Part shown: positions 38,533-57,223 of the stretch, piece after piece
Numbering within the stretch: the stretch's first letter is position 1
Layout: each line of letters opens with the position of its first letter
Source of the DNA: an uncultured Gemmataceae bacterium
Lineage (GTDB): Bacteria > Planctomycetota > Planctomycetia > Gemmatales > Gemmataceae
Assembly (NCBI GenBank): GCA_963750165.1
Contig: CAVVPN010000011.1
Coordinates: 96,001-160,000 of the forward strand
Direction of reading: 5' to 3'
DNA length: 64,000 nucleotides
The notes under the pieces: generated by a model
The model's input: the letters and a program-made list of their open reading frames with translations, nothing else
Databases searched by the model: none
Told to the model about the DNA's origin: nothing
Program-made: the position numbers and the translations under genes

Positions 38533-38553
38533 TCTTGCCCCGCGTCGGCGTCC

Positions 38554-38628
38554 TCAGGGCGTTGCCCTGGGCTAAGTTGTCCCGCCCCTTCGGGGCGAAG
38601 AAACCGCTACACCCGACCGTAACGCGCT
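38554..38628 (+). repeat. CAGGGCGTTGCCCTG and GCCCCTTCGGGGC hairpins plus the flank shared with 1298-1342
   Basis: Direct inspection and manual alignment. Confidence 0.7.
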
Positions 38629-39313
38629 TTAAGTTTCGCGCGGACCCGCGCGCGCTGCACGAACACGGCGTGGGCATGCTCATCGGGTCGGACGGGCTGC
38701 GCTTCCGGGAGGTTCAGTTGCCGCAGCCGCCGCAGTTCGCGGGCGTTGCGGATGCTGATGACGAACGCCCCCAGCGCCAGCAGCAAGGCGATGCCGGCGA
38801 CCAGGGCCGGCACGTCCAGGCCAGTGCCGCGCTCGCGCCGGGCTCCCGCTTCGCCGTCCGTGGGCGCCGGTCGAGGCAGCCGGACTTGCGGTTCGCGGTC
38901 GCGCTCTTGCTTGCGGTCCCCGGCTAGTTGATCGAGTTGCATCTTCTGCACGTCCAGCACGGGCGGCAATTTCGCCTCCAGTTCCCGGGCGGGGATGCGC
39001 AGTTCCTTGGTGTGGCCCTGGCCCGCGGAAATGACGACCTTCAAATCCTCGGCCCTGGCGACGGCGAACACCAGCACGCCCTGTTTCATGACCAGCGTCT
39101 TGCCGAACAGCGGTTCGCCGCCGGGCGCAGCACCGTCACGTTCGCCAGCGGCGGCGCGTCGCCGGTCTCGAACCAGCATTCGAGCTTGACCCTGCCGTCC
39201 GGCTGCACCCAGTAATCGCCGTCAAGCCGGTGCGCCCGGGCCGTTCCGGTCAGCGTCAGCAGCAGCAGGTGCGCCAGCAGGGCAGGGCAGCACAGGGGAG
39301 CGCGGCGCAACAT
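38607..39313 (-). CDS. CbiL/NikL-like membrane-anchored accessory protein; frameshift near 39122
   Basis: Signal ending ARA-HRL; LECWFETG...ANVTVLRP / GGEPL...GVLVF...AGQGH; C-terminal TM; downstream of cbiM. Confidence 0.65.
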
Positions 39314-40187
39314 GTTCCGAAACCTCCGATGCAGGCGCTCGCCAGGGGGAACCACCGTCGGGCAGCCGCAGCAGTGCCGGCTTGACCCGGGCCAGGAAGC
39401 CGACCGTGAAGCCCACGACCACGCCTTCCACGACCGCCAGCGGCAGGTGCGTCAGCGCCACGACCAGCGCTGGCACAAAAAAGTTTGTCTCGCCGCCCCA
39501 GACCAGCACCAGGAAATTCAACGCCACCGTCGCCAGCACCGTCAACTCGCCGAGCAGCAGGCCCAGCGGAAACTCCGGCCGATTTTCCAGGCGCCGCTCC
39601 AGCCACACCGACCCGGCCGCCAGCAGCAGCGCCACCGCCAGCGTCAGCGGGTGCAGCGTCACCGCCGTGGCCGCAGTGGTGTCCACGTTTTCCAGGGTGC
39701 CGAGGTTGCTCACCAGCAGCGCCACGCTGAAAACGCAACTCAGCGTCCACGCCAGGCTGCTCACGGCCACCAGCAGCGTCCGGCACCAGGCCGTGCGCCA
39801 GCCGCGCCAGCGCCGCAGCCCGGCGAATGCCGCCCCCGCCGCCAGGGCCGGGGCAGTCATCACCACGCTGTTAACGCCGAGCGTGTACAGGCCGCCGTGT
39901 TGCAGCAACAGATACTGTAGCAGCAACGCCACCGGAATCGCCAGGCACGCACGCCAGCCGAGCATGACGCCGAGCAGGCCGTTCAGCAGCAAGTGGACGC
40001 TGCCGGGGCCGACGCGGACGTGGATCGAACTGGCGACGAAGAAGGCGGCCGTCAGCAGGGCGATCTGCGGGATTTCCTCATCGCGGATGCGCCAGCTGCC
40101 GACCAGCGCCAGCAGCGCTGCGATTGCGAAGCCGCCCAGCAGCCAGGGCCAGTTCAGCACGTTGTCGGAGATGTGGACCGCCAGCAT
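39222..40187 (-). CDS. cbiM: ECF-type Co/Ni substrate-binding membrane component CbiM/NikM
   Basis: (V/M)HISDNVL N-terminus, AAFFVASSIH, SVHLLLNGLLG, HGGLYTLGVN, HLPLAVVEG. Confidence 0.88.
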   Translation of the reverse strand: MLAVHISDNVLNWPWLLGGFAIAALLALVGSWRIRDEEIPQIALLTAAFFVASSIHVRVGPGSVHLLLNGLLGVMLGWRACLAIPVALLLQYLLLQHGGLYTLGVNSVVMTAPALAAGAAFAGLRRWRGWRTAWCRTLLVAVSSLAWTLSCVFSVALLVSNLGTLENVDTTAATAVTLHPLTLAVALLLAAGSVWLERRLENRPEFPLGLLLGELTVLATVALNFLVLVWGGETNFFVPALVVALTHLPLAVVEGVVVGFTVGFLARVKPALLRLPDGGSPWRAPASEVSEHVAPRSPVLPCPAGAPAAADADRNGPGAPA

Positions 40188-40199
40188 GGCGACTCCCGC

Positions 40200-41048
40200 T
40201 CAGTTGCCGGCGATCTTTTCGTCCACGTGGACCCAGAACGTGGTGCGATAGCGCACGGGGTAGTCCTTGCCGTTGTGCTTGCTAACGCCGCCGTCGATCT
40301 GGCCAGTGATGGCCCACCAACCCGGACTCTGGAGCGTACAGGTGGCGACGCCGTTGGGATCGGTCTTGAGCGTACGGGTAATGTGCTCGTCGGCCGGTAA
40401 TTGTTTGGGCGGGGCGGGATTGAAGCGTTCGACCTCGACGAGGGCGCCGGCAAGCGGCGTGGGGCCTTTGCTTTTCTCGCCGGTGTCGAAGCCGCTCACC
40501 GTCGAACTCAGCAGTTGCGTCTGGAATACCGTGCCAGGTTGTAAGCCGTAGGGTCGCGTCAGCGGCCGCATCCAGAGCCCCATCCAGAGTTTGCCGATGC
40601 CTCCCTGAACGGCGTCAGCGTCCCAGTTCTTCTGGGCCTGGACGTGCAAAACCGCTTTCGCCACATCCATGACAATCACATTGTCTTCTTTCAGGAAAAC
40701 GGGGGCTGCCACCAGGCAAAACGTGTAATCGCCGCGCTGGTTCGGGGTGAACTTGAGCCGATAAGCGACCACTTCCTTATTATCGGGCGTGGCCTGCTTT
40801 ATCTTTTCCAGCTGCTTGGTCAGATTCGCCACCTTGCCATCCGGCGCGATTACGAGCAAGCTTTGCGGCGGCGGCGCGGCGAACAACTGGTGCTCGAACG
40901 GATGACCCCAGCGATAGAGCAGCGTGACTGATTCGTCTTTCTTAACGCTGTGTTTGTCCGGCAGCAGGATGTGGTAGTGCGCCGGGGCGAGCGTCGCGCT
41001 CAGGGTCAGCGTCAGCAGGGCCAGGATGAGGCGGAGCAGGTTGCGCAT
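40200..41048 (-). CDS. DUF4198 periplasmic protein (Ni/Co uptake-associated)
   Basis: Signal ending APA-HYHILLP; WGHPFE; PLTRPYGL; VEVERFN; KTDPNG; GWW. Confidence 0.85.
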   Translation of the reverse strand: MRNLLRLILALLTLTLSATLAPAHYHILLPDKHSVKKDESVTLLYRWGHPFEHQLFAAPPPQSLLVIAPDGKVANLTKQLEKIKQATPDNKEVVAYRLKFTPNQRGDYTFCLVAAPVFLKEDNVIVMDVAKAVLHVQAQKNWDADAVQGGIGKLWMGLWMRPLTRPYGLQPGTVFQTQLLSSTVSGFDTGEKSKGPTPLAGALVEVERFNPAPPKQLPADEHITRTLKTDPNGVATCTLQSPGWWAITGQIDGGVSKHNGKDYPVRYRTTFWVHVDEKIAGN

Positions 41049-41097
41049 GGCGTTGTCACCGGGGCAGTGGAGGAGGGCCAGAACACCACCGGGGTCC

Positions 41098-41124
41098 ATC
41101 ATACGGATTTGAAAATCGTATTAC
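41098..41124 (-). promoter_or_regulatory. Putative NikR-like operator overlapping a -10 box
   Basis: Minus strand GTAATACG-ATTTTCAAATC-CGTATGAT, an imperfect palindrome ending in TATGAT, 50 bp before the DUF4198 start. Confidence 0.55.
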
Positions 41125-41296: not shown

Positions 41297-43173
41297 ATGA
41301 GCCCAGCAGCACCGAACCGCTTACGAGTTGGCCCTGCTCTGGCCCTGCTGGCGACACTGTTGATCGTGGCTGCCGGTCGTGGGCTCGGTCAGGAGGGCGA
41401 AGCGAAACAACCCATCCCCAGCGCGGCGGAGCAGGGCAAGGCGGAGAAGAACCTGCACCGGTTGTTCCAGAAAGACTTTGCGGCAGCCGCGAAGGATCCG
41501 AAGACAGGCCTGCCGCTGGCGCAAACCCTCCTCACCGAAGCGAAGGCCACCCGGGACGAAGCCGCGGTCATGTTCGTTGGTCTGCGCGAGGCCGGTGTGC
41601 TGGCCCTGGGCGCCGGCCAGAAACAGCCCTGGCTGGACGCCGCGGACGCCCTGGCCCAGGAGTTCCCCCTGAGCGTGCTGGCGGCCCGGTCGGAGGTGCT
41701 GGCCCAGGCAGTGCCGCGGCGCTGTCCAGCGATCAGCAGCAATTCCTGACCCAGTGTGGTCTGTCGCTCCTGGACGACGCCGCCCTGCGCGACGACCCGC
41801 ACACCTGGGGCCAACTGCAAGCCACCCTCCGCAAGACCGCCGACGGCTCGGCGTCGCCCCGATGGGTCGGCCTTGTGAAACGGCGGTTGGAGCAACTGGC
41901 TCCGGTCACGGCCGAGCTGGAGCAGCTGCGGGTCGCCCGGCAGGCGCTGCAAAAGAACCCCCGGGACGCCACCGCTCACACCAGCGCCGGCCGGTTCTAC
42001 GCTCTGCGCGGCGCCTGGGGCCGGGCGCTGCCGCTGCTGGCTCAGGGCCGCGACGGCGGCCTGCGCCGCCTGGCCCTGGCGGACCTTGCCTGTCAGAAAA
42101 ACGCGAAAAAGCCGCTGCTGGTCGCGGATGGCTGGTGGGAGCTGGCCGCGGACTTCGAGGGGCCGCTCCGCAAGGAACTGCAGCGGCGCGCGGTCTTCTG
42201 GTATCGGCAACTGCTTGGCGGACTGGATCGGGAGGAGGAAGCCCGCACGGAGCTGCGCGTCGCCAGCATCGGTCTGAGTCCGCACACGCCGCTCGGCCAC
42301 CTCCGCACCTTCACCGGCCACACCGGCGCCGTGCAGTGCGCGGCGCTGTCGCCGGACGGCCGGTTCGTCATCTCGGGCGGCGCGGACAGGGAACTGCGTC
42401 TCTGGAATGCCATCACGGGCGAGAAACTGCAACTATTCAAGGGCCACACCGCCCAGGTCTGGAGCGCGGCGTTCGCGCCGGACGGCAAGCACCTCCTGTC
42501 CTGCGGGGAGGACGGCACCGTCCGGCTGTGGGACGCTGCCACCGGCAAGGCGGTGCGGCAATTCACGGGACACGGCGGCTTCGTCAACGGCGTCACCTTC
42601 GCGGCGGACGGCAAGCGGGCCGCCAGCGTGGGCGACGACCGCTCCGTGCGTGTCTGGGAGGTGGCGACTGGCAAGGAACTGCGACTGCTGGAGGGACATC
42701 GGGCGCCGACGTGGGGCGTGGCTCTGTTCGCGGACGGCGAACGGCTACTCTCCGGCGGCCATGATCGGCGGGTGATCCTGTGGGATGTGGCGACCGGTAA
42801 GATGCTCCGCGAGTTCGGCGGCCACAAGGACGCGGTGCTGGGCGTGGCCGTGACGCCGCAGGGCACGTTCGCCGCCTCGGCCAGCGCCGACCGCACCGTC
42901 GGCCTGTGGGATCTGAAAACCGGCAAGGGCGTCCGGCTAACCGGTCACACGGACGAGGTGTACGGCGTGGCGTTCGCGCCGGACGGCCAGCGGCTGCTGT
43001 CGTGCGGCAAGGATCGGACGATCCGCCTGTGGGACGTGCCCAGCGGCGTGGAACTGCGGCGCTTCGAGGGACACACGGACGAGGTGGGGAGCGTGGCGTT
43101 CTCGGTGGACGGCGTATACGCGCTGAGCGCCAGCCGGGATGGGACGGTGCGATTGTGGGGGTTGCCCAGGTGA
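41297..43173 (+). CDS. Secreted helical-domain plus WD40 protein; frameshift near 41715
   Basis: N-terminal ORF joins the WD40 ORF after a one-base shift with no stop; paralogue of the next gene (GAWGRALPLLAQG vs GRWGEGLRHLEKG). Confidence 0.85.
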
Positions 43174-43213
43174 TCGGGGCCGGGCTTGACCCGGACGTGA
43201 GGGGGGTTTCGCG

Positions 43214-45115
43214 ATGCAGCAAGAACGACACTGGCGCCGGGGGGCGGTCCTCGCCGGCCTGTTGCTCGGCCTGATCGGGGTGCTGGCCAGCGCTGAACCG
43301 GGCGGCCAGAAAAAGAAGCCCGCGCCGAGTGCGGTCGCCCAGGACAAGGCCGAGGCGGTCATCCGCAATATTTTCAAGGCGAAGTACGCGGGCGCCGCGG
43401 AGAACGCCGGCGCCCGCCGCGAGCTGGCCAAGATTCTTTTTGACGAGGGCAAGAAGACCACGGACGACGACGACCTGCGCTTCGTGGCGATCCGCGAAGC
43501 CCGCGACCTGGCCGCCCGCGGCGGCGACTTGACGCTGGCCTTCCAGGCGGCGGACGAGCTGGCGGCCGGCTACGTGGTGGACCTGCCGCACATGAAGCTT
43601 GAGTTGCTGAAGCTGGCGGCCAAACTGGACGCCGGCCCGGACGAGCAGCGCGCCCTGGTGCGGCGCATGCTGCTTGTGGTAGCCGAGGCCGTCGAGCTGG
43701 ACCAGTACGAGGTGGCGAAGACCGCCGGCCAGCTGGCCGAGAGCCTGGCCCGCAAGGCGGAAGCCCATGATCTGATCGCGGAGGCCCACAAGCGCGTCAA
43801 GGCCCTGGCTCAGCAGCAGGCGGCCTTCGAGCAGGTGCGGCCCGCCCTGAAGCACCTGCAAGACAAGCCGGCTGACCCGGCAGCCAACCTGACGGTGGGC
43901 AAGTACCTGTGTTTCATCAAGGGCCGCTGGGGCGAGGGACTGCGGCACCTGGAAAAAGGTAGCGACGCGGACCTGCGCGTCCTGGCCGCCAGGGACGCGA
44001 AGGTGGCCGACGCCAGTACCCCGGAGGACGACGAGGCCCGCGCCGTGGCCGACGCCTGGTGGGACCGCGCCCGCACCGAGGGCCCGGGGGCGGCCGGCCA
44101 GATTCGCCTGCGAGCCTACCGCTATTACAAGCTGGTGCTGCCGCGGCTGGCCGGGTTGACCAAGGCACGCATCCAGGAGCGCGTGCAGGAGGTGCTGGAG
44201 GAGTTTCCGTACCTGGCCTCGGGCCTGCTGCTGACGCTGGAGGGCCACACCCGTGAGGTGCTGTCCGTGGCCGTCACACCAGACGGCCGCCATGCCCTGT
44301 CCGCGAGCTGGGACAAGACCGTGCGCATCTGGGATCTGAGGAAGGGCAAAGAAGTCGGCCGGCTGCTGGGACACAAGGATGAGGTGAACGCGGTGGCGGT
44401 GTCGCCGGACGGCAAGCTGGCCGCGTCCGCCGGAAGCGAGAACACCATCCTGGTCTGGGACATGCAGACGCGGGCGCAGCTGCACGCGCTGACGGGCCAC
44501 ACCAATTCGGTGCGGACGCTGGCGTTCGCGCCGGACTCGACGACGCTGCTCTCCGGCGGCAACGACAACTCGCTGCGATTGTGGGATGCGGTGAACGGCC
44601 AGGCGGTCCACACCATCAGCAACGCCCACAAGGGTTCGACCGAGAGCGCCGTGTTTTCCGCGGACGGCCGCTACATCCTGTCGGGCGGCTGGGACAGCAT
44701 CGTGACGTTATGGGACGCGAAGACCTACAAGCCGCTGCGGACCATGAAGGGACACGAAGGCGGCGTCTACCGCGTGGTCCTGACGCCGGACGGCCGCCGG
44801 GCCATTTCAGGGAGCAGAGACCGGACCATCCGCGTCTGGGACGTGAGCAACGGCGAGGAGGTCCACAAGCTGACCGGGCACGCGGACGACGTGATCGGCC
44901 TGGCAGTGTCGCCGGACAGCCGCCGGCTGCTGAGCGGTGGCGGCGTCAACGACAAGGCCATGCGGTTATGGAACCTGGAGAGCGGCCGCGAGTTGACGAA
45001 ATTCCTGGGTCACACGCACGGCGTCTGGAGCATCGCGTATGCGCCGAACGGCTGGCGAGCCGTGACCGGCAGCGCCGACCACACAGTGCGCGTGTGGGCG
45101 ATCCCGAAGGAGTGA
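43214..45115 (+). CDS. Secreted helical-domain plus WD40 protein
   Basis: Signal peptide; seven GH...WD repeats at the C-terminus. Confidence 0.92.
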   Translation: MQQERHWRRGAVLAGLLLGLIGVLASAEPGGQKKKPAPSAVAQDKAEAVIRNIFKAKYAGAAENAGARRELAKILFDEGKKTTDDDDLRFVAIREARDLAARGGDLTLAFQAADELAAGYVVDLPHMKLELLKLAAKLDAGPDEQRALVRRMLLVVAEAVELDQYEVAKTAGQLAESLARKAEAHDLIAEAHKRVKALAQQQAAFEQVRPALKHLQDKPADPAANLTVGKYLCFIKGRWGEGLRHLEKGSDADLRVLAARDAKVADASTPEDDEARAVADAWWDRARTEGPGAAGQIRLRAYRYYKLVLPRLAGLTKARIQERVQEVLEEFPYLASGLLLTLEGHTREVLSVAVTPDGRHALSASWDKTVRIWDLRKGKEVGRLLGHKDEVNAVAVSPDGKLAASAGSENTILVWDMQTRAQLHALTGHTNSVRTLAFAPDSTTLLSGGNDNSLRLWDAVNGQAVHTISNAHKGSTESAVFSADGRYILSGGWDSIVTLWDAKTYKPLRTMKGHEGGVYRVVLTPDGRRAISGSRDRTIRVWDVSNGEEVHKLTGHADDVIGLAVSPDSRRLLSGGGVNDKAMRLWNLESGRELTKFLGHTHGVWSIAYAPNGWRAVTGSADHTVRVWAIPKE

Positions 45116-45198: not shown

Positions 45199-46338
45199 TC
45201 AAGCCGTGATCTCCGCCAGGGCCCGTGCCAGCCGGTCGATGTCGTCCGCGGTATTGAACGGCCCCGGACTGACGCGGACGGTGCCGTCGGGGAAGGTGCC
45301 GAGGGCGCGGTGGGCATACGGAGCGCAGTGCAGTCCCGGGCGGATGGCGATGTCAAACGCCGAGTCGAGAATGCCGCCCAGGGTGGTCGCGTCCAGCGCC
45401 GCGTGGCGGCAGCTGAGCGTGCCGACGCGCCGGCTGGGGTCGCGGTGACCGAACACCTCAAAGCCGCCGATCTCGTCCAGACGCCCCCACAGCCGCTCGA
45501 TCAACTCAACCTCGTGGCGGTGAATCTGTTCGAGCCCCTGCTCCGCGACATAGCGCACGCCCGCGGCCAGGCCGGCGACGCCGAGCACATTGGGCGTACC
45601 GCCTTCGAGAAAGTATGGCAGCTCACGCGGCTGCGTCTCGCTGGCGGAGTCGCCGCCGGTGCCCCCCTCGCGCCAGGGCCGCAGTTCGACGCGCGGCCCG
45701 ACGTACAGCGCCCCCGTACCGGTCGGCCCCAGCAGCGACTTGTGGCCGGGGAACGCCAGCAAATCGATGGGTAATTGCGTCAAATCGATGGGCAGCACGC
45801 CCGCGGTCTGAGCCGCGTCCACCAGGAACAGGGCGCCGTGCTCGTGCGCCAGGCGGCCAGCCTCGACGATGGGCTGCACGGTGCCGAGGACATTGCTGGC
45901 GTGCGTCAGCGCCACCAGGCGCGTGGGATGGCGCAGGGCCTGGCGCAGCGCGTCGAGGTCGAGGGTGCCGCCGGCGTCGCAGGGCAGGCGCGTGAGGGTG
46001 ATGCGGCCGGCGAGTTCCAGGGCACGCAGCGGCCGGCTGACGCTGTTGTGCTCCAGCACGGTGGTGACGACGTGATCGCCGTCGTTGAGGACGCCCTTGA
46101 AGGCCATGTTGAGCGCGTCGGTGCAGTTGAGCGTGAAGGCGAAGCGCTCCGGGCCGGCGCCGTGGAAGAACTGGTTGAGGGCGTGGCGGGCGTCCTCCAG
46201 GGTGCGCTCGGCGGCGACGGCCATTTTGTGACCGGCGCGGCCGGGGTTGGCGAGGCTGGTGCGGGCGCAGCGGTCGAGGGCCTGGTAGACGGCCTCGGGC
46301 TTGGGGAAGCTGGTGGCGGCGTTGTCGAGGTAGATCAT
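45199..46338 (-). CDS. Cysteine desulfurase family (aminotransferase class V)
   Basis: MIYLDNAATS, EHNSV, VDAAQTAG, FPGHKSLLGPTG (PLP Lys), EGGTPN, RPGLHCAP (persulfide Cys). Confidence 0.92.
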   Translation of the reverse strand: MIYLDNAATSFPKPEAVYQALDRCARTSLANPGRAGHKMAVAAERTLEDARHALNQFFHGAGPERFAFTLNCTDALNMAFKGVLNDGDHVVTTVLEHNSVSRPLRALELAGRITLTRLPCDAGGTLDLDALRQALRHPTRLVALTHASNVLGTVQPIVEAGRLAHEHGALFLVDAAQTAGVLPIDLTQLPIDLLAFPGHKSLLGPTGTGALYVGPRVELRPWREGGTGGDSASETQPRELPYFLEGGTPNVLGVAGLAAGVRYVAEQGLEQIHRHEVELIERLWGRLDEIGGFEVFGHRDPSRRVGTLSCRHAALDATTLGGILDSAFDIAIRPGLHCAPYAHRALGTFPDGTVRVSPGPFNTADDIDRLARALAEITA

Positions 46339-46363
46339 GGGGTGGCCCGGGTGGTGGCGAGGG

Positions 46364-46984
46364 TCAGGCGGTGGCGCGCGGCAACAGGTCGGCGACCTGG
46401 AACGTGGCGATTTGCTTGCCGGCGATGACGAGAGGCAGCCGGTCGTCGGGGCCGTAGTCCTGCCGCTGGCGGTAGGCGGGTGCCTTGCCGGCCTTAGGCT
46501 GCGTGTAGGCTTCAACGACGCGGTCCACCAGATTCACGATCCAGTAAACCGGCAGCCGGGCGCGGGCGTACAGACGGCCCTTGTCCGCACGATCGCTTCC
46601 CAGCGTGGTGTCGGCGACTTCCACAACGAGAGCGATGTCTGCGGGTACGGGATGGCGCTCCTCGTAGCGGCGTGCGGGGCCGACCACCACGGCCAGGTCT
46701 GGTTCCGGTTCACTGTCTGAGAGCGTGATCGGTAGCTGAACACGTACGCGCCACTCCTTCGGGAGTGAGTCTCGCACAAGGTCGTCCAGCAATTGCACGG
46801 TGACGGCGTGCGGCGGGTTGGGCGTCATTTTTCGCACCAGGAGCCCTTCGAGCAATTCAATGCGTTCGTCCCCCGGAATGATGCCGGAGTTATTCAACTG
46901 ATGGAATTGTGCGACCGTCAGGCGGTACAGGTTCAGCGCGGTCTCTGTGGCGGGCGCACGGGCTGACTGTTTCACCATCAACAT
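46364..46984 (-). CDS. Uma2 family endonuclease-like protein
   Basis: RIELLEG, SEPEPDLAVV, LVVEVADTTL, DKGRLYARA, YWIVNL; own CAGGAG RBS. Confidence 0.9.
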   Translation of the reverse strand: MLMVKQSARAPATETALNLYRLTVAQFHQLNNSGIIPGDERIELLEGLLVRKMTPNPPHAVTVQLLDDLVRDSLPKEWRVRVQLPITLSDSEPEPDLAVVVGPARRYEERHPVPADIALVVEVADTTLGSDRADKGRLYARARLPVYWIVNLVDRVVEAYTQPKAGKAPAYRQRQDYGPDDRLPLVIAGKQIATFQVADLLPRATA

Positions 46985-47010
46985 GGCAATCTCCTGCCAA
47001 CGACCCCGAA

Positions 47011-48046
47011 TCAATTCCCGATGTACCGCGCGTACAGCGTCCGCGCCCGGTCCACATCGCTGGTGCCCTTGATGATCGCCCGGCCGTCCGGGAACACCGT
47101 GAACTCGTAGCCGTCCACGCTGAACTTCAGCAAAAATCGATTGTAACTCACCTCGCCGAGCGTCCCCAGTTGCCGGGCCATCTCCTCGAAGTTCAGCCGC
47201 GCAGGCGCTGCGCTGCGCCACCTGCACGGCGTTGCGGCCGCACAGGCTGGTGGTGTGCGAACCGTGCTCGCCCTCCAGCCATTCGAAGCGGCGCCGGCCG
47301 CAACACGGGCAGTCCACCTTGCCCAGCAGCGGCGCTACCTTGATGCGGCGGAACTGGTTCTCCCACACGTCCACATAGATCAGGTCACGGTTGATCTGCG
47401 CCCGCTGGCCGGTCAGCAGTTTCAGTGCCTCGGTCGCCTGGAAACTGGCGATGATGTTGACCACCGGCGACAGCACGCCCGCGGTCTCGCACGTGGCCGC
47501 CTCGCCCGGCGCCGGCGCCGCCTCGAAGACGCAGCGCAGACACGGCGTCTCACCGGGCAGGATCGTCATCGTCTGGCCGTGGCTGCCGATGGAGCCGCCG
47601 TAGACCCACGGCTTGCCGAGCTTCACCGCGGCGTCGTTGATGAGATAACGAATCTCGAAATTGTCGGTGCCGTCCAGGATCACGTCGGCGTCATGCACCA
47701 GGTCGAGGATGTTGGTGCGGTCGATGTCCGCGACCACCGGTTCGACGTGGACGCCGGAATTGATCGCGCCGAGCTTGCGCGCCGCGGCTTCGGCCTTGGG
47801 CAGGTTCTCCGCCACGTCGTGCTCGTCGAACAGCACCTGTCGTTGCAGGTTGTGCGTCTCGATGAAGTCGCGATCCACCAGCCGCAGATGGCCGACGCCC
47901 GCCCGCACCAGCAAGTTCGCCAGCACCGTCCCCAGCGCCCCGCAGCCGCACAGCGTCACGTGGCTGGCCAGCAGCGCCCGCTGCCCCGCCTCGCCGATGC
48001 CGCCGAAACGCATCTGCCGGCTGTATCGCTCCAGCGTTGGCTCCAT
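47011..48046 (-). CDS. ThiF/MoeB adenylyltransferase without rhodanese domain; frameshift near 47205
   Basis: RYSRQ, GCGALG, DRD, NLQRQ, DGTDNF, PCLRC, CPCC, LCGRNAVQ; C-terminus VFPDGRAIIKGT...LYARYIGN-stop in the shifted frame. Confidence 0.9.
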
Positions 48047-48047
48047 G

Positions 48048-48425
48048 TCACTCCTGGGTCTCACCGATCACCGTGTCGCCGAAGTCCGTAAAAAAATCCT
48101 TGGTGACGTGTTGCAGCACGTTCATCTCCCCCTCCCCCCAGCCGTCTTGGCGGGCGAATTCGAGCAGGCAAGCCATGTCCTCGCGCACCTGGTCTCGTTG
48201 CGGACCCTTGAGGCGGTGCAAATAGGACAGCATGATTTCCAACGTCAGGGTGGCGGCGTCGGGGTTCACCACGTTCTCCTCGGAAGCGATCAGAAAGACC
48301 AGGGGCTGCAGCGTTGCCAGCAGCAACGGATGCACCGGCACTTCGGGCGGGACGTCCGGCAGGATCGCCGCCCCCTCCGGCACCTCCACCTCCTCGCCGT
48401 GCTCGTCGTGGTCGTGGTCCGTCAT
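48048..48425 (-). CDS. Acidic hypothetical protein with His-rich N-terminus (125 aa)
   Basis: MTDHDHDEHGEE...; ATG 2 nt after the carrier-gene stop; stop 1 nt before the ThiF start. Confidence 0.75.
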   Translation of the reverse strand: MTDHDHDEHGEEVEVPEGAAILPDVPPEVPVHPLLLATLQPLVFLIASEENVVNPDAATLTLEIMLSYLHRLKGPQRDQVREDMACLLEFARQDGWGEGEMNVLQHVTKDFFTDFGDTVIGETQE

Positions 48426-48427
48426 GG

Positions 48428-48700
48428 TCAGCCCCCCGCCACGGCAGGAATGATGCTCAGCTCGTCGCCGTCCTTGACCGCGCTGTTGAGGTTGTCCAGG
48501 TAGCGGATGTCCTCGTCGTTGAGGTACAGGTTGACGAAGCGACGCAACTGGCCGTTGTCGAACAGCCGCGGCGTGAGCGCCGGGTATTTGGTGCCGAGGT
48601 TCTCGACGACCTCCTTCACCGTGCCGCCGGCCACCTCGACGACCGCCTGGCCCTCGGTGTGCTGCCGCATCGGCGTGGGGATGTGAACGCGGATTGACAT
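48428..48700 (-). CDS. MoaD/ThiS/CysO-family ubiquitin-like sulfur carrier
   Basis: IPTPMRQHT...LRRFVNLYLNDEDIR...LSIIPAVAGG, ending in Gly-Gly. Confidence 0.93.
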   Translation of the reverse strand: MSIRVHIPTPMRQHTEGQAVVEVAGGTVKEVVENLGTKYPALTPRLFDNGQLRRFVNLYLNDEDIRYLDNLNSAVKDGDELSIIPAVAGG

Positions 48701-48719
48701 AATGGCTCCGTGGTGAGTA

Positions 48720-48801
48720 AAGACAAATCACGAAAGCACGAAAGGACGAAAACACGAAAAAGACCAATTCATTTTTATTTCGTGTTTTCGCGATTTGTCT
48801 T
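48720..48801. repeat. Tandem-repeat (CACGAAA) hairpin between the thrC-like and carrier genes
   Basis: AAGACAAATCACGAAAGCACGAAAGGACGAAAACACGAAA...TTTCGTGTTTTCGCGATTTGTCTT. Confidence 0.75.
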
Positions 48802-48814
48802 TGGGTTTTGATGA

Positions 48815-50082
48815 TTATACAAGCGCCGGCACCGGCTCCGGCGTCGGGCGCCCTCGACAATGCGCACCACTTCCTTCAGCGACGGCTGGATGACGGCCGG
48901 GCGCTCCAGGCAGCCAGCAACCGCGTCCTGCGTTTTCAGGCCGTTGCCGGTGATGCAGATCACGATTTCCTCGTCGCGCGGCAGGCGGCCCTGCTCAAGC
49001 AGCTTGCGCGTCACCGCCAGCGTCACGCCGCCGGCCGTCTCCGCGAAGATGCCTTCCGTCCGGCCCAGCAGCGCCATCGCCTCGGCGATCTCCGTGTCGC
49101 TCACGTCCTCGCCCCAGCCGCCGCTGTCACGCATCACCTTGATGGCGAAGTAGCCGTCCGCAGGGTCGCCGATGGCCAGCGACTTGGCGATGGTGTTCGG
49201 CTTCTGCACCGGCTCGTGCGTCTCCAGGCCCTTCTTGAACGCGCCCGTGATCGGGTTGCAGCCCGTCGCCTGGGCGCCGTAAATCTTGCACCGGCCGCTC
49301 GGGATGAGCCCGATCTTCTCCAGTTCGTGGAACGCCTTGTGCAGTTTGCCGATCAGGCTGCCGCCGGCCATCGGCGCCACGATGTGCTGCGGCACGCGCC
49401 AGCCCAGTTGCTCCGCGATCTCGTAGCCCATCGTCTTGGAGCCCTCGGCGTAGTACGCCCGCAGGTTGATGTTGACGAAGCCCCAGCCGAACTTGAACGC
49501 CACCTGCGTACACAGCCGGTTTACCTGGTCGTAGGTGCCGTGGACGCCGATCACCTTCGCCCCGTAGATCGACGTGCCGAGCACCTTCGCCGGCTCCAGA
49601 TCGGAGGGCACGAAGATGTAACTCCGCATACCGGCGGCGGCGGCATTGGCGGCGACGCTGTTCGCCAGGTTGCCGGTCGAGGCGCAGCCCACCGTCTCCA
49701 GGCCGAACTCGCGGGCCTTGCTCAGCGCCACCGACACCACACGGTCCTTGAACGACAGCGTCGGAAAGTTGACCGCGTCGTTCTTGACCCACAGCGTCTT
49801 GACGCCCAGCGCTTTGGCCAGTCGATCCGCCCGCACCAGCGGCGTGCCACCGACCAGCGTGCCGACCGTAGGCTCGCCGTCGAGCGGCAGCAGTTCGCGA
49901 TAGCGCCACATGTTGAAGGACCGCAGGCCGATCTGTTCGCGGCTGATCGCCTCGGCAATGGACCCGTAGTCGTAATCGACTTCCAGGGGACCGAAGTCGT
50001 CCTCGCAGAAGTTGCTCGGGCCCTGGGGGTAGGATTTGCCGCACAGGCGACACTTCAAGCCGCGCACAAACGAGTCAGCCAC
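48815..50082 (-). CDS. thrC: Threonine synthase-like fold-type II PLP enzyme (possibly O-phosphohomoserine sulfhydrylase); C-terminal frameshift near 48847
   Basis: CRLC zinc ribbon, GGTPLV, PTLSFKDR (PLP Lys), CASTGN, EGSKT, EGIFAETAGG, ITGNGLK; symbol reflects family only. Confidence 0.85.
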
Positions 50083-50099
50083 GACGGTCCCTCCATTGT

Positions 50100-50140
50100 T
50101 TCCTTCCCCCCTCGCTCCCTGAAGGGGGAGAGGGGAGGAA
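50100..50140. repeat. CCCCTCTCCC-type hairpin in the operon leader
   Basis: TTCCTTCCCCCTCGCTCCCT-GA-AGGGGGAGAGGGGAGGAA. Confidence 0.6.
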
Positions 50141-50196
50141 TGCAAAAGGCGTTTCGGTTTGTCGGCGGGTATTTAGCCAGAGGCGGGAAGGGACGT

Positions 50197-50237
50197 AAAA
50201 AAACGCCCCTTCCCGGTGTTTAGAGAAGAAGAGGCGT
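50197..50237 (-). terminator. Riboswitch expression-platform terminator
   Basis: Minus strand ACGCCTCTTC...GAAGGGGCG followed by a T7 tract. Confidence 0.75.
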
Positions 50238-50250
50238 GCGTCGCACACGA

Positions 50251-50360
50251 TCTTATCTCTCCCGGCCGGACCGGGAGGGAGTTAGCACCAGCATCAGCCT
50301 GGCGGCCGACCGGTTGCTGTGGCTTCAACGGGCCCTGTCCCTCAGCCACTCTGGATAAGA
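50251..50360 (-). promoter_or_regulatory. SAM-I (S-box) riboswitch aptamer
   Basis: Minus strand CTTATCCAGAGTGGCTGAGGGACAGGGCCCGTTGAAGCCACAGCAACC...GGTGCTAACTCC...GAGATAAG matches the S-box consensus. Confidence 0.95.
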
Positions 50361-50473
50361 TACCAGCCAAATTGTCGTTCAGGTCGCGGCCGGTTTTGCG
50401 GCCGACCGCATTAAACAGATATTATGCGCCGCCCCGGTGGCAAGCAACTGTTTTTCGATGGATTTTCGAAAAA

Positions 50474-51763
50474 TCACGACCGCAGCAACAGCACCAGTCC
50501 CACCAGCAACAGCAGCACCAGCCAGAAGGCGCCCAGGCCGAGCGCCACCCATTTGAAGTAACCCAATCCCTGTCTCGCCTCCGGCAGTGGCAGGTCCGCG
50601 CTGGCCAGGTCGGCCCCTTCGCCGCGGCTCAACGCCTGCACCGCCTGGTAAAACCCCGTGTCCTCCGGCCGGTCCAGCGGCAGCCCCGGCGCCGCTTCAG
50701 CCCAGGTCAGCAGTTCGCTCCGCAACTCCGTCGCCGTGGCCACGCGGCGGGCCGGGTCCTTGGCCATCAGGCGCCGCACCAGCGCGGCGAAGGCCGGCGG
50801 CACCGTGCGGTTCAGCTGCTCCAGCGGCGCCGGTTCCTCGCGGCGGTGGCGCTGAATCTTCTCCAGCGCCGTGCCGCCCGGGAACGGCGGCTTGCCGGCC
50901 AGCGCGAAGTACAGCGTACAGCCCAGGCCATAAATGTCCGAGCGCTGGTCCACCGCGGTGGCGTCCTGCGTCTGCTCCGGCGCGATGTAGTCCATTGAGC
51001 CGACGACATAGCCCTGTCCGCCAACCACTTCGCGCTCGGCGCCGGTCTCGCCCGCTATCAGCGCCAGACCCAGGTCGAGAATCTTGGCGTGGTCGTTGGG
51101 CGTAATCATGATGTTGGACGGTTTGAGGTCGCGGTGGATCAGGCCGCGGGCGTGGGCGTGCTCCAGGGCGGCGGCCACCTCCGCGAACAGCCGCGCCGCC
51201 CGCGGCACCTTCAGCGGCCCGTCCTCCGTGACGACGCGGTACAGGCTCTGGCCCCAGATGAACTCCATGGCGATGTAGTAGACGCTGTGGACCACTCCCA
51301 CGTCGAGGATGCGGACGATGTGCGGGTGCGCGACACGCCGCGATAGCTCCATCTCGCGGCGGAAGCGGGCGAGCATCCGCTCTTCCTCGCGGGCGCGCTT
51401 GGGCGGCAGCACCTTGAGCGCCAGCAGTGTCTGGTCGCGCTTGTCGCGCACCAGGTAGACGGTGCTCATGCCGCCACGGCCGATGGGTGCCAGCACCTGG
51501 TACGGCCCGAGCACCAGACCGCGGGCCGCCCCCTTCAGCAGTTTTTGCGCCTGGAAGCGCGACAGCTTGCCGGTCTTGATGAGGTGTTCGGCGAGCAGGG
51601 CGGGGTCGGCGCGCTGTTCGCGGCTGACGCCCTGGACGGCGACCTGGAGCTGGGGCCGGTCGAGCAGGCCGCTGCGCAGGATGGACTTGAGGAACTCGGA
51701 CACCGCGGTGGAGTCGGCGCCCGGGGCGGGGTCGGGGCCTGGCGGTATCGCGGCGTTGGGCAT
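50474..51763 (-). CDS. Ser/Thr protein kinase with C-terminal TM helix
   Basis: IGRGGMSTVY, ALKVL, IHRDLKPSN, DLGLA, GSMDYIAPEQ, SDIYGLG. Confidence 0.95.
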   Translation of the reverse strand: MPNAAIPPGPDPAPGADSTAVSEFLKSILRSGLLDRPQLQVAVQGVSREQRADPALLAEHLIKTGKLSRFQAQKLLKGAARGLVLGPYQVLAPIGRGGMSTVYLVRDKRDQTLLALKVLPPKRAREEERMLARFRREMELSRRVAHPHIVRILDVGVVHSVYYIAMEFIWGQSLYRVVTEDGPLKVPRAARLFAEVAAALEHAHARGLIHRDLKPSNIMITPNDHAKILDLGLALIAGETGAEREVVGGQGYVVGSMDYIAPEQTQDATAVDQRSDIYGLGCTLYFALAGKPPFPGGTALEKIQRHRREEPAPLEQLNRTVPPAFAALVRRLMAKDPARRVATATELRSELLTWAEAAPGLPLDRPEDTGFYQAVQALSRGEGADLASADLPLPEARQGLGYFKWVALGLGAFWLVLLLLVGLVLLLRS

Positions 51764-51870
51764 GGGACACGTCGGCAAGGGGATCCGAGGCGATTGATCC
51801 GGGATGATTGGGGTTGATCGTAAAGGATGACCGCGGCGGTGTCAAGAATGGGGGTGCGCCACTCGATGTT

Positions 51871-54188: not shown

Positions 54189-54479
54189 TTTATAGGCACG
54201 GTTGTCCAGGTGTCCCTCGTGATTCCCAGCAACCGACGCCAACCGCACCCCCGACTATCAGCAGCAATGGCGGAGAACCGCTTTTCCGGAAGTTCACGCC
54301 GCCCTGAACGGCCAGCGCGAAAAGCTCTGCACGGATTCCAGTTGATCCTGTGGGCGTCAGGGAGCGGCGGCCGGGGGGAGGGCTTTGGCGACCTCTGCAT
54401 GCGGTTGGGGGCGGAGCGGTTGTAGGCGCTGCTGCCAGGGAACGTGGCGACCCGCGACCGGTTGCACAATGCTAACCCC

Positions 54480-54520
54480 GTTTCCGTTTTGCGCGGGCAG
54501 CATCCGCGCGAAACGGAAAC
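54480..54520. repeat. Palindrome family C, second copy
   Basis: GTTTCCGTTTTGCGCGG-N7-CCGCGCGAAACGGAAAC. Confidence 0.75.
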
Positions 54521-54581
54521 GGCGTTCATGTTGCACGGCCTCCCGGATCGGCTATGCTGGGGAACACTTCAGGAGGCCGCC

Positions 54582-57050
54582 ATGACCCGCTCAGCCCTTG
54601 TGCTCGCGTTCTACCTCTGCCTGTTGCCCGCCGCGGTCACCGCCCAGCCGCCGCCAGTGCGCCTCGACCACCACGGCGATCCGCTGCCGCCCCACGCCAT
54701 CGGCCGCATCGGTCCGGTGCGCTTCAATCACGGGGACAGCATCAACGCGCTCGCCTTCTCCCCGGACGGCAAGACCATCGCGTCCATCGGCGAACACGGG
54801 GTCCTGTTCTGGAAGACGGCCACCGGCCAGTTGCTCGGCGAATACCGTCTCGACGAAGCCGCCTACTGTCCGCACCTTGCCTTCGCGCCCGACGGCAAGC
54901 ATGTGGCCATCGTGTGCGCGGCATCCGCCGTGGCCCTGTACGAGGTCGCCACGGGCAAGGTCGCCCGCAAACTCACCTGCGACAATTTCGTCAGGATGGT
55001 CCGGTTCGCGCACAACGGCCGCCTGCTGGCGATCGAGGCCCGCGGCCTCATTCAGTTGTGGGACACGGCCACGGGCAAATGCCTCCGCACCGTTCGGTAC
55101 GGAGACGAATCGGCGCTCGACCTGGCGTTCAGCGCCGACGACCGCACGCTGCTGGCGATCCGCGACGGCGCCCTGCGGCGCTGGGACGTGGGCACGGGTA
55201 AACTGCTCGGCGCGTCGCAACTGCCGGGGTCTCTGGTGACGGCCGCCCGGTTTTCTCCCGACGGCTCCGTCCTGGCGGCCTGTCAGTTGAATCGCCGCTG
55301 GGGCCTGTGCCTCGACCGCGTCTGTCTCTGGGACGCCGCCACCGGCGAGCAACTCCGCTACCTGCCGCCCTGGGTCCAGGGGAATTTTTTTTCCAACGAC
55401 GAGCTGGCCTTCTCGGCGGACGGCAAGACCCTGGCCTGTGTGATCGACGACGGCGTGCGGCTCTTCGAGGTGGCCACCGGCCGGGAACTCCGGCACCTGG
55501 AGCAGTGGCAATGGGTGCGTCAACTCACCTTCTCCCCCGACGGCACCGCCCTCGCCTGCACGGACGGCTACCGCGTGCGCGTCTGGGACCTGGCGGCGAA
55601 CCGGGAGCGCGTGCCGCCGGGCAGTCATTCGACGCTGTGGCTTGACCTCGCCCTGTCACCGGACGGCAAACGGCTGGCCGCCTTCGACACCGAACGCGAG
55701 CAGGTCGGCCTCTGGGACACCGTCACGGGAAAGCAACGGTTGAGCCTACGCTGGCAGCCAGGCAGCGGTGACTGTATCGCGGTCGGGCCGGGCGGCGATC
55801 TTTTGGCGGTCGCCGCCCGCTCCGAGCACGTGTTCCTGCACGAACTCCCTTCCGGCAAGCACCGCTTCACGCTCGGCGGCCACAAAGAAGGCGTGACCGC
55901 GTTGGCCTTCTCCCCGGATCGCCAAACCCTGGCGGTGGCCAGCTACGACACCTGGATTCGCCTCTGGCACGTCGGCACCGGCAAGTTGCTGCGCACGCTC
56001 GAGGGCAAGGGCTCGCCAGACTGGTCCTGGCAGATCGCCTTTTCCCCGGACGGCGCACTGCTGGCGAGTGTGACAGACAATGTAACGCCGGGCGTGCGGC
56101 TATGGGACGTGGCGACGGGTGCGTCGAAAACCGTTGGCCCCGACGACCGGGAAGCGGCCTTCGGCGGCCACTGTGTGGCCTTCTCGCCGGACGGCCGGCT
56201 CCTGGCCGTGGGGCAGGACATAGGCAGTGTGGTGCGGGTGCTGGAACTCGTTTCCGGGAAAGTGATTTGGGAAAAGCAGCACCAATCGCGACAGGGGCAG
56301 TTGAGGGACATGGCGGTGGTCTTCTCGGCGTGCGGCCGCGGCCTGGTGAGCGGGCACCCGTCCGAGGTGCGGGTGTGGGATGCCTGGACCGGCGCGACCC
56401 GAGCGCGCCTGGACGGCCACCGCAACCGGGTGTGGCGGCTGGCCGTGTCGCGGGACGGCGGCGTGCTCGCCTCCAGCAGTTCGGACGGCACGGCCCTGCT
56501 CTGGGACATTCGCCCGCTGGTCCGCCCGCAGCCGCAGCCAGCGAAGCATACGCAAGCAGCGCTGCGGGCGGCCTGGGACGACCTGGCCGGGGCGGACACG
56601 GCGAAAGCGTACGTGGCCCTGGCCGCCCTCGTGGATGCGGGCGACCCGGCCGTGGCGCTGGTGAACACTGGGTTGCGGCCGGTTGCGCCGCTGGACGAAC
56701 AGCGGGTGAAAAAACTCCTCACGGATTTGGGCGACCCACGTTTCGCCGTGCGCGACCAGGCTACTGCTGGGCTGCGGAAGTACGGCGAATTGCTGGTGCC
56801 CACGCTGCGGCAACGGCTCAAAACCCCGACCTCCCTGGAGCAGCGGCGGCGCCTGGAGAGCTTGCTGGCGCTGTGGGAAGGGGATTCGCCGTCCGCGGAG
56901 GTGTTGCGGACGTGCCGCGCCGTGGCGGTGCTGGAGCACATCGGCACCCCCGCGGCCAGCGAGGTGCTACGGACGCTGGCCAACGGCGCCCCTGGGGCAC
57001 GGCTGACCCGCGAAGCTGCGGCCGCCCTCAAGCGGCTCACCCGTTCCTGA
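54582..57050 (+). CDS. Secreted WD40-repeat protein with C-terminal HEAT-like helical domain
   Basis: DHHGDPLPPHAIGRIG start; AFSPDG repeats; RAVAVLEHIGTPAA...REAAAALKRL. Confidence 0.92.
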   Translation: MTRSALVLAFYLCLLPAAVTAQPPPVRLDHHGDPLPPHAIGRIGPVRFNHGDSINALAFSPDGKTIASIGEHGVLFWKTATGQLLGEYRLDEAAYCPHLAFAPDGKHVAIVCAASAVALYEVATGKVARKLTCDNFVRMVRFAHNGRLLAIEARGLIQLWDTATGKCLRTVRYGDESALDLAFSADDRTLLAIRDGALRRWDVGTGKLLGASQLPGSLVTAARFSPDGSVLAACQLNRRWGLCLDRVCLWDAATGEQLRYLPPWVQGNFFSNDELAFSADGKTLACVIDDGVRLFEVATGRELRHLEQWQWVRQLTFSPDGTALACTDGYRVRVWDLAANRERVPPGSHSTLWLDLALSPDGKRLAAFDTEREQVGLWDTVTGKQRLSLRWQPGSGDCIAVGPGGDLLAVAARSEHVFLHELPSGKHRFTLGGHKEGVTALAFSPDRQTLAVASYDTWIRLWHVGTGKLLRTLEGKGSPDWSWQIAFSPDGALLASVTDNVTPGVRLWDVATGASKTVGPDDREAAFGGHCVAFSPDGRLLAVGQDIGSVVRVLELVSGKVIWEKQHQSRQGQLRDMAVVFSACGRGLVSGHPSEVRVWDAWTGATRARLDGHRNRVWRLAVSRDGGVLASSSSDGTALLWDIRPLVRPQPQPAKHTQAALRAAWDDLAGADTAKAYVALAALVDAGDPAVALVNTGLRPVAPLDEQRVKKLLTDLGDPRFAVRDQATAGLRKYGELLVPTLRQRLKTPTSLEQRRRLESLLALWEGDSPSAEVLRTCRAVAVLEHIGTPAASEVLRTLANGAPGARLTREAAAALKRLTRS

Positions 57051-57118: not shown

Positions 57119-57150
57119 AGCCTTGCGATTTCTCGCAAGGCTTCATTTTT
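57119..57150. terminator. Probable bidirectional terminator between the WD40 gene and the tRNA
   Basis: AGCCTTGCGA-TTTC-TCGCAAGGCT with A/T tracts on both sides. Confidence 0.7.
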
Positions 57151-57223
57151 ATCCCCGACAGGATTCGAACCTGTAACCTCTACCTCCGGAGGGTAGCGCT
57201 CTATCCAGTTGAGCTACGGGGAC
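57150..57223 (-). tRNA. tRNA-Arg (anticodon CCG), CCA not encoded
   Basis: GTCCCCGTAGCTCAACTGGATAGAGCGCTACCCT-CCG-GAGGTAGAGGTTACAGGTTCGAATCCTGTCGGGGATA folds as a cloverleaf. Confidence 0.96.

Follow-up and report, generated by a model that had tools for sequence, protein, structure and literature searches.

A SAM-I riboswitch operon of a Gemmataceae planctomycete encodes a probable MetM/MetO-type homocysteine synthase and a candidate sulfur relay

Mycobacterial CysM/CysO/Mec and Wolinella succinogenes HcyS/HcyF/HcyD use the thiocarboxylate of a ubiquitin-like carrier as sulfur donor to a pyridoxal phosphate (PLP) enzyme. These enzymes belong to the CysM or MetY family and act on phosphoserine or O-acetylhomoserine, and a gene for a JAMM peptidase lies beside the carrier gene. 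The Escherichia coli IscS-ThiF-ThiS and IscS-MoeB-MoaD relays use a rhodanese-less E1 enzyme with a conserved cysteine, fed by a cysteine desulfurase, and end in thiamine or molybdopterin. Homocysteine chemistry by MetM and its carrier MetO was reportedly described in Streptomyces albulus by Hasebe and colleagues in 2024, work that we know through papers citing it. Here we analyze a related operon, controlled by a SAM-I (S-adenosylmethionine) riboswitch, in a 64,000-nucleotide (nt) stretch of an uncultured Gemmataceae bacterium (GCA_963750165.1, contig CAVVPN010000011.1, positions 96,001 to 160,000; hereafter the window). The operon encodes an enzyme resembling threonine synthase (ThrC) and a small carrier, which very probably make homocysteine from O-phosphohomoserine as MetM and MetO do. 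The core of this chemistry was already described in 2024, so the pathway is not a new one.

The S. albulus proteins MetO, Mec, MoeZ and MetM are listed in an excerpt of the 2026 GapMind paper (PMC13759103), which states that MetM is often misannotated as threonine synthase and that threonine synthase models sweep in MetM. The string "planctomyc" is absent from its main text. A SAM riboswitch lies upstream of S. albulus metM (excerpt of PMC12172450), and the route is also cited in a preprint (bioRxiv 10.64898/2026.09.15.751699, in excerpt). The planctomycete locus shares with S. albulus MetM/MetO the SAM riboswitch, the ThrC-like enzyme and the adjacent small carrier. It differs in that its operon holds a ThiF without rhodanese domain rather than MoeZ, co-encodes a TIGR01977 cysteine desulfurase, lacks Mec and adds an orphan gene, and MetX and MetY are also encoded in the genome. 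We infer that this ThiF and the desulfurase would take the place of MoeZ. Compared with the CysM/CysO/Mec and HcyS/HcyF/HcyD systems, the enzyme here is ThrC-like, while the carrier matches CysO structures. Compared with the E. coli relays, the desulfurase is of the SufS-like TIGR01977 type, not IscS. Our literature search turned up no report of such an operon packaged with a rhodanese-less ThiF, a TIGR01977 desulfurase and an orphan gene; the homolog survey of Hasebe et al. 2024, outside that search, may already cover planctomycetes. The operon reads as follows, in window coordinates.

50250..50361, minus strand: SAM-I (S-box) riboswitch aptamer, by Rfam covariance-model match to RF00162
50197..50237, minus strand: predicted intrinsic terminator, 12-bp stem (hairpin 50203-50237) with a U7 tail
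48775..50082, minus strand: ThrC-like fold-type II PLP enzyme of the MetM clade, by PALP/ThrC family matches, tree and signature
48428..48700, minus strand: MetO/CysO-like sulfur carrier of the ThiS family, 90 amino acids (aa), by family match and Gly-Gly end
48048..48425, minus strand: acidic protein modeled as four helices, 125 aa, lacking a match in the family searches
47011..48046, minus strand: ThiF/MoeB adenylyltransferase of the PRK12475 type without rhodanese domain, by family matches
46364..46984, minus strand: Uma2 (DUF820-type) gene, by family match
45199..46338, minus strand: cysteine desulfurase family protein TIGR01977, by family match and catalytic motifs

The ThrC-like enzyme has the PLP lysine (Lys112), an N-terminal CxxC ribbon and the signature NINLRAYYAEGSK. 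With ThrC of Thermus thermophilus (1uim), Bacillus subtilis (6cgq) and Aquifex (2zsj) it shares the type II fold, the PLP lysine, the STGN motif and the presumed substrate O-phosphohomoserine. It departs from ThrC in its CxxC ribbon, its SAM-I control and its carrier partner, and is about 35% identical to operon-verified ThrC. The ThrC motif VNSxNPxRxEGQK (also written VNSVNPxRxEGQK) is replaced by VNINLRAYYAEGSK; Ser155 is not kept, and in the alignment Tyr211 takes the place of Arg160 of T. thermophilus ThrC. We take Arg160 to bind phosphate, a role for which a literature search found no paper.

A tree of the PLP enzyme, which the first-pass annotation had proposed as a check, separates it from ThrC. 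The tree has 53 rows and several long branches and was built by quick search with support from the Shimodaira-Hasegawa-like approximate likelihood ratio test (SH-aLRT), without bootstrap. The window enzyme, its orthologs in relatives and actinobacterial proteins form a 45-row clade (SH-aLRT 99). Streptomyces "thrC" proteins linked to SAM-I and a carrier, which stand in for S. albulus A0A059WBP2 and A0A059W7F4, fall in the same clade, share the signature and are 50-52% identical to the window enzyme; their carriers are 43-51% identical to the operon carrier. Brevibacillus ThrC, from a hom-thrC-thrB operon, falls outside and groups (98) with a second gene of the source genome, C12:878k; it is the sole operon-verified ThrC in the tree and a long branch. 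The altered signature is present in 44 of the 45 clade rows, and the ThrC signature only in two rows outside the clade, Brevibacillus and C12:878k. A third paralog, C11:2225k (PRK08197), falls in yet another group.

The operon's arrangement recurs among relatives. Our comparison set held 40 relatives and the source genome (G000), 41 genomes in all; the relatives are kin, not independent tests. The enzyme has an ortholog in 35 of the 40 (66-80% identity). SAM-I lies within 1 kb upstream in 33 of these 35 loci; a contig end truncates the gene in the remaining two. The five relatives lacking the ortholog have no SAM-I match over the cut-off. The carrier follows the enzyme in 32 of the 35 fetched loci and ThiF in 28. 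The desulfurase is linked in 16 loci, or in 18 if two contig-end joins are counted. The acidic gene is present in 15 (16 with a contig-end join), all within the window's own family. Several of the genes missing from these loci coincide with contig ends.

These relatives mostly lack a full acylhomoserine route to homocysteine. Four genomes (G000, G013, G025 and G028) have MetY over its cut-off, and in a fifth, G019, it is split; MetX scores above 360 bits in the same five genomes. Six other genomes have weaker MetX-like matches, which were not counted as MetX, and MetA was found in none of the 41. Strong MetX occurs with MetY over its cut-off in only two ortholog-bearing relatives, G025 and G028, leaving 33 of 35 with no full acylhomoserine route. 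Among the five relatives without the ortholog, two have both MetX and MetY, and G004 has fragments. In one of the five, G001 (96% complete), searches for the MetM ortholog, SAM-I, MetX, MetY and MetA found none; it may be an auxotroph, have an assembly gap or use another route. Taken together, the tree position, signature, riboswitch, carrier linkage and near absence of MetA, MetX and MetY in relatives support a MetM/MetO-type homocysteine synthase, in agreement with the sulfur-carrier-dependent pathway proposed in the first-pass annotation, which had also correctly named the Streptomyces precedent (excerpts of PMC13759103 and PMC12172450).

Beyond these relatives, close homologs of the enzyme occur in 27 of 200 genomes across the phylum. 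Eleven of the 18 distant Planctomycetota loci that we fetched have a carrier, and SAM-I was found in 8 of the 14 scanned. In this synteny comparison, a check suggested in the first-pass annotation, the order enzyme-carrier-ThiF-desulfurase recurs in 5 of the 18, and 7 of the 18 have no adjacent carrier. One distant locus (L111) runs SAM-I, hom, GHMP kinase, MetM-clade gene, an order that fits O-phosphohomoserine as the substrate. Scanning GTDB for the motif gave 120 loci; we analyzed the 80 that were listed, each from an actinobacterium according to its title. All 80 hold a homolog of 45-59% identity, and 57 have a carrier within the roughly 1.6 kb fetched. SAM-I was present in all 20 Streptomyces and Kitasatospora loci scanned from these 80.

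The riboswitch matches RF00162 over its full length (model 1-108) and scores 81.6 bits, where the gathering score is 44.4 (E 1e-17); it is the single match in the genome (9.6 Mb, 93% complete). It lies 167 nt upstream of the ThrC-like gene. Folding of the leader gave a z-score of -5.5, and none of 200 shuffles was equally stable. In the predicted structures, the transcript folded up to the U-tract forms aptamer stem P1 and the terminator (-73.0 kcal/mol). When the P1 5' strand is blocked, the P1 3' strand (about 50251-50260) instead pairs with the terminator 5' arm (about 50220-50231) as an antiterminator (-68.6 kcal/mol). The layout is thus predicted to be the usual SAM-off arrangement of mutually exclusive terminator and antiterminator, and both elements named in the first-pass annotation, aptamer and terminator, are borne out, the latter as a prediction. 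The two closest relatives (L049 and L050) share the terminator hairpin. Terminator-like sites overall are at chance level (6 vs 3.9 +/- 2.0), and a search for a sigma-70-type promoter found none. Immediately upstream of the riboswitch lies a Ser/Thr kinase gene (50474-51778, minus strand), as in relative L051.

The six coding regions downstream of SAM-I are co-oriented, with gaps of 74, 2, 1, 26 and 25 nt and a GC content at third codon positions of 0.77-0.92. Coordinates, gaps and family matches agree with the tightly spaced genes and families read in the first-pass annotation, which overlooked two frame problems. DNA alignment places one extra base near 47205 in ThiF, a +1 frameshift; the assembled frame skips the last ~60 residues of ThiF and continues through Uma2, giving one open reading frame (ORF) of 560 aa. 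At its end, the ThrC-like ORF departs from those of relatives over ~20 residues, while another frame gives the relatives' EP-ALV ending and a stop at 48815, which is probably the true stop. Frame changes were found in 7 of 65 test loci of this assembly, ThiF included, a rough rate as the loci include some shadow and duplicate rows. A cystathionine gamma-lyase-like gene and the second thrC are also split. Assembly indels are the likely cause of both problems in the operon. A genuine ThiF-Uma2 fusion was considered and judged unlikely because the ThiF frame is open in all 26 relatives holding both pieces and frames change elsewhere in the assembly.

Among the partner proteins, the carrier ends VAGG, with Gly-Gly directly at the stop, and so would need no trimming; 31 of 38 carriers end at GG and seven have short extensions, whereas several Streptomyces carriers end GGC. 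Two distant planctomycete loci (L098 4537-5100 and L105 4353-4856) encode a carrier fused to a NIL domain after the Gly-Gly region, and in L105 MoeZ and Mec lie beside the carrier with a cysteine-synthase-like ORF. ThiF (PF00899, 254 bits) has the adenylation domain, the zinc cysteines and the active-site cysteine, Cys186, which is kept in alignment to E. coli ThiF. As it has no rhodanese domain, it should need an outside persulfide donor, from what is known of the family. The desulfurase scores 421 bits against the TIGR01977 cut-off of 377 and falls under the cut-off of the SclA selenocysteine lyase model (341 vs 525 bits); it has PLP Lys200 and Cys338 in RPGLHC (motif RxGxHC). The catalytic Cys motif is kept in 34 of 34 ThiF and 37 of 37 desulfurase copies. 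Relative G011 has a second, more distant TIGR01977 gene (L251, G011:C10:79600-89200) followed by an ORF that appears SelD-like by its motif, the selenium context described for TIGR01977.

The acidic protein matches nothing in Pfam or NCBIfam. It has 84 homologs, the named ones from Gemmataceae, and its Atlas matches are unnamed clusters only. Its model (predicted local distance difference test score, pLDDT, 83) consists of four helices; Foldseek found no match at E 0.001, and the best VIA match (Z 6.9) was to generic helical repeats. A role in persulfide relay was set aside because no cysteine is invariant among its homologs. We treat it as a putative accessory confined to family-level relatives. 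In four loci of a second family (L055, L058, L059 and L076) the acidic gene is absent and an ORF for a hydrophobic protein of ~110 aa lies between the enzyme and carrier genes. Uma2 has eight matches in the genome, lies in 4 of the 35 ortholog loci and varies there in position; it is a probable passenger.

The genome encodes what a MetM/MetO route would need: homoserine dehydrogenase (Hom) and the kinase HomK (TIGR02535 over its cut-off) for O-phosphohomoserine, E1-like activators (ThiF and MoeZ) and a JAMM peptidase. A search for ThrB in the genome matched only an IspE-like gene. The JAMM/Mec-like peptidase gene lies away from the operon at C3:183.8k, and JAMM is found in 40 of the 41 genomes. 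CysK, a CysE-like gene below cut-off, CBS, a gamma-lyase-like gene and MetH are also present. Three further ThiS-family proteins are encoded. At G000:C11:1677604-1678650 (minus strand), a ThiS domain and a longer, probably ThiG-like protein form an in-frame fusion that leaves the Gly-Gly internal; such a fusion would need a JAMM-type cut to mature. Adjacent metY-metX genes lie at G000:C11:544652-547506 (minus strand) with no SAM-I match in front, and MetY with MetX occurs in 5 of the 41 genomes. The operon is neither self-contained nor, in this genome, the sole homocysteine route. The claim of a self-contained operon therefore fell, because HomK and the JAMM/Mec-like peptidase are encoded elsewhere. 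The combination that the first-pass annotation named as telling against its reading, a sole thrC with a full canonical methionine pathway, is found by half: metY-metX is present, but a second thrC exists.

We propose the following pathway. When SAM is bound, P1 would be held, the terminator freed and the operon switched off (step 1). Hom and HomK, encoded elsewhere, would provide O-phosphohomoserine (step 2). ThiF would adenylate the C-terminal Gly-Gly of the carrier, as its family does (step 3). The desulfurase would draw sulfur from cysteine onto Cys338 as a persulfide and deliver it, possibly through Cys186 of ThiF, to form the carrier thiocarboxylate (step 4). By homology to MetM, the PLP enzyme would eliminate phosphate and would place the thiocarboxylate on the gamma carbon rather than water on the beta carbon (step 5). 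Hydrolysis, probably by the unlinked JAMM/Mec-like peptidase or else simple hydrolysis, would free homocysteine, which MetH would then methylate (step 6). The pathway would run parallel to metY-metX in the source genome, and would be the only recognizable route in most relatives. Step 4 is the weakest. The whole chain, including charging of the carrier by the operon's own ThiF and desulfurase, is reasonably probable, a grade below that of homocysteine synthesis by the enzyme and carrier.

Several observations weigh against this pathway or parts of it. The enzyme exceeds the cut-offs of two "threonine synthase" hidden Markov models (TIGR00260, 276 vs 167; PRK08197, 304 vs 303), and all five of its PDB matches are threonine synthases. 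The link to S. albulus MetM/MetO runs through stand-in Streptomyces loci, and the quick tree, made without bootstrap, draws on kin that are not independent samples. A Microcystis homolog, 51.6% identical to MetM and with a carrier adjacent, showed weak threonine formation in vitro and failed to increase methionine in vivo (excerpt of PMC12172450). Seven of the 18 distant homologs have no adjacent carrier. One of their loci (L110) consists of hom, GHMP kinase and a clade gene without SAM-I or carrier, and this clade member could act as ThrC. The operon's ThiF is frameshifted as assembled. A clear hairpin-plus-U terminator was flagged in just 9 of the 33 relatives, and two of these were weak. 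All relatives but one hold further untyped Cys/Met PLP enzymes, and with metY-metX present the source genome does not need a MetM/MetO route. The enzyme might be a threonine synthase, wholly or mainly, with the carrier, ThiF and desulfurase serving cofactor synthesis under SAM control; the model scores, the PDB matches, the Microcystis homolog and L110 favor this, as does the frameshift, as assembled, in the genome's ThrC-signature gene, C12:878k. We consider it very unlikely, as a ThrC-signature paralog is present, SAM-I precedes the gene in 33 of 35 relatives, the clade is separate and its phosphate-site motif altered, and the 33 of 35 relatives without full MetX and MetY would be left with no recognizable homocysteine route. 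Misannotation of MetM as threonine synthase is moreover common (GapMind excerpt, PMC13759103). The carrier thiocarboxylate could alternatively serve another substrate, turning phosphoserine into cysteine as in CysM/CysO, or making cysteate or some other sulfur compound. Among the best PDB matches of the carrier is a CysO entry (3dwg, E 2e-21), and L105 adds MoeZ, Mec and a cysteine-synthase-like ORF. The enzyme itself points elsewhere, being 51% identical to Streptomyces MetM-type proteins against about 30% over short stretches to CysK/CBS, and scoring 60 bits against the cut-off of 325 for cysteate synthase (TIGR03844). CysK and the CysE-like gene already exist in the genome, making cysteine from cysteine sulfur would be futile, and in L111 a clade member shares a SAM-I-preceded locus with hom and a kinase; we give this alternative only a slim chance.

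A third rival accepts homocysteine synthesis by MetM/MetO and disputes the sulfur source: the carrier would be charged through MoeZ/rhodanese or sulfide, and thiF and the desulfurase would form a general relay that serves ThiS and MoaD and is often encoded in the operon. About 11 relatives have the desulfurase gene unlinked, three genomes that lack the ortholog (G001, G013 and G019) nonetheless have it, and in G001 and G006 it travels as a pair with thiF away from the enzyme. This is why we rank step 4 weakest, and the pattern fits a general sulfur relay. In G001 an acidic-thiF-Uma2-desulfurase cluster (L240, G001:C30:275500-285000) stands where no enzyme, carrier or SAM-I was found. The source genome also encodes a MoeZ with rhodanese besides its three other ThiS-family proteins, and S. 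albulus uses MoeZ (excerpt of PMC13759103). The TIGR01977 family is tied elsewhere to selenium metabolism, and its Enterococcus member is a probable selenocysteine lyase (excerpt of PMC2276186). Linkage in 16-18 of 35 loci is partial. Against these points stand the four-gene order in 5 of 18 distant loci, the position of ThiF after the carrier in 28 of 35 loci, and the dependence of a rhodanese-less ThiF on an outside persulfide donor. This rival is unlikely, with a minor but real chance of being right. Charging by the operon's own ThiF and desulfurase is the reading we prefer. Its widest version is speculative and, in our view, doubtful: an order-wide relay from cysteine through TIGR01977 and ThiF to MetO and MetM that replaces MoeZ and MetA/MetX/MetY, gives TIGR01977 a role outside selenium, and has the acidic protein as a family-specific adaptor or regulator where other lineages have the NIL domain.

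The window holds other features. A tRNA gene with anticodon CCG (Arg, from the Rfam alignment) lies at 57150-57223 (minus strand), and a marginal match to Acido-Lenti-1 RNA (37.6 bits vs a cut-off of 37) at 38553-38597 (plus strand). Several WD40-repeat-like ORFs were seen by eye at 41297-45115 and 54444-57050 (both plus strand); the ORF that ends at 45115 is convergent with the desulfurase gene. At 39222-41102 (minus strand), a membrane-protein ORF that we take to resemble CbiM/NikM, with a secreted ORF before it, is perhaps a cobalt or nickel uptake unit.

The short sequence signature described here separates MetM-clade genes from the threonine synthases under whose name they are annotated. 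The operon also names a testable sulfur source for a MetO carrier, cysteine by way of a rhodanese-less ThiF and a desulfurase of TIGR01977, a family so far tied to selenium. MetM/MetO is likely the main methionine route of this planctomycete order. If true, it would fill the methionine gap in the 33 of 35 gene-bearing relatives without full MetX and MetY, in a set of 41 genomes in which no MetA was found.

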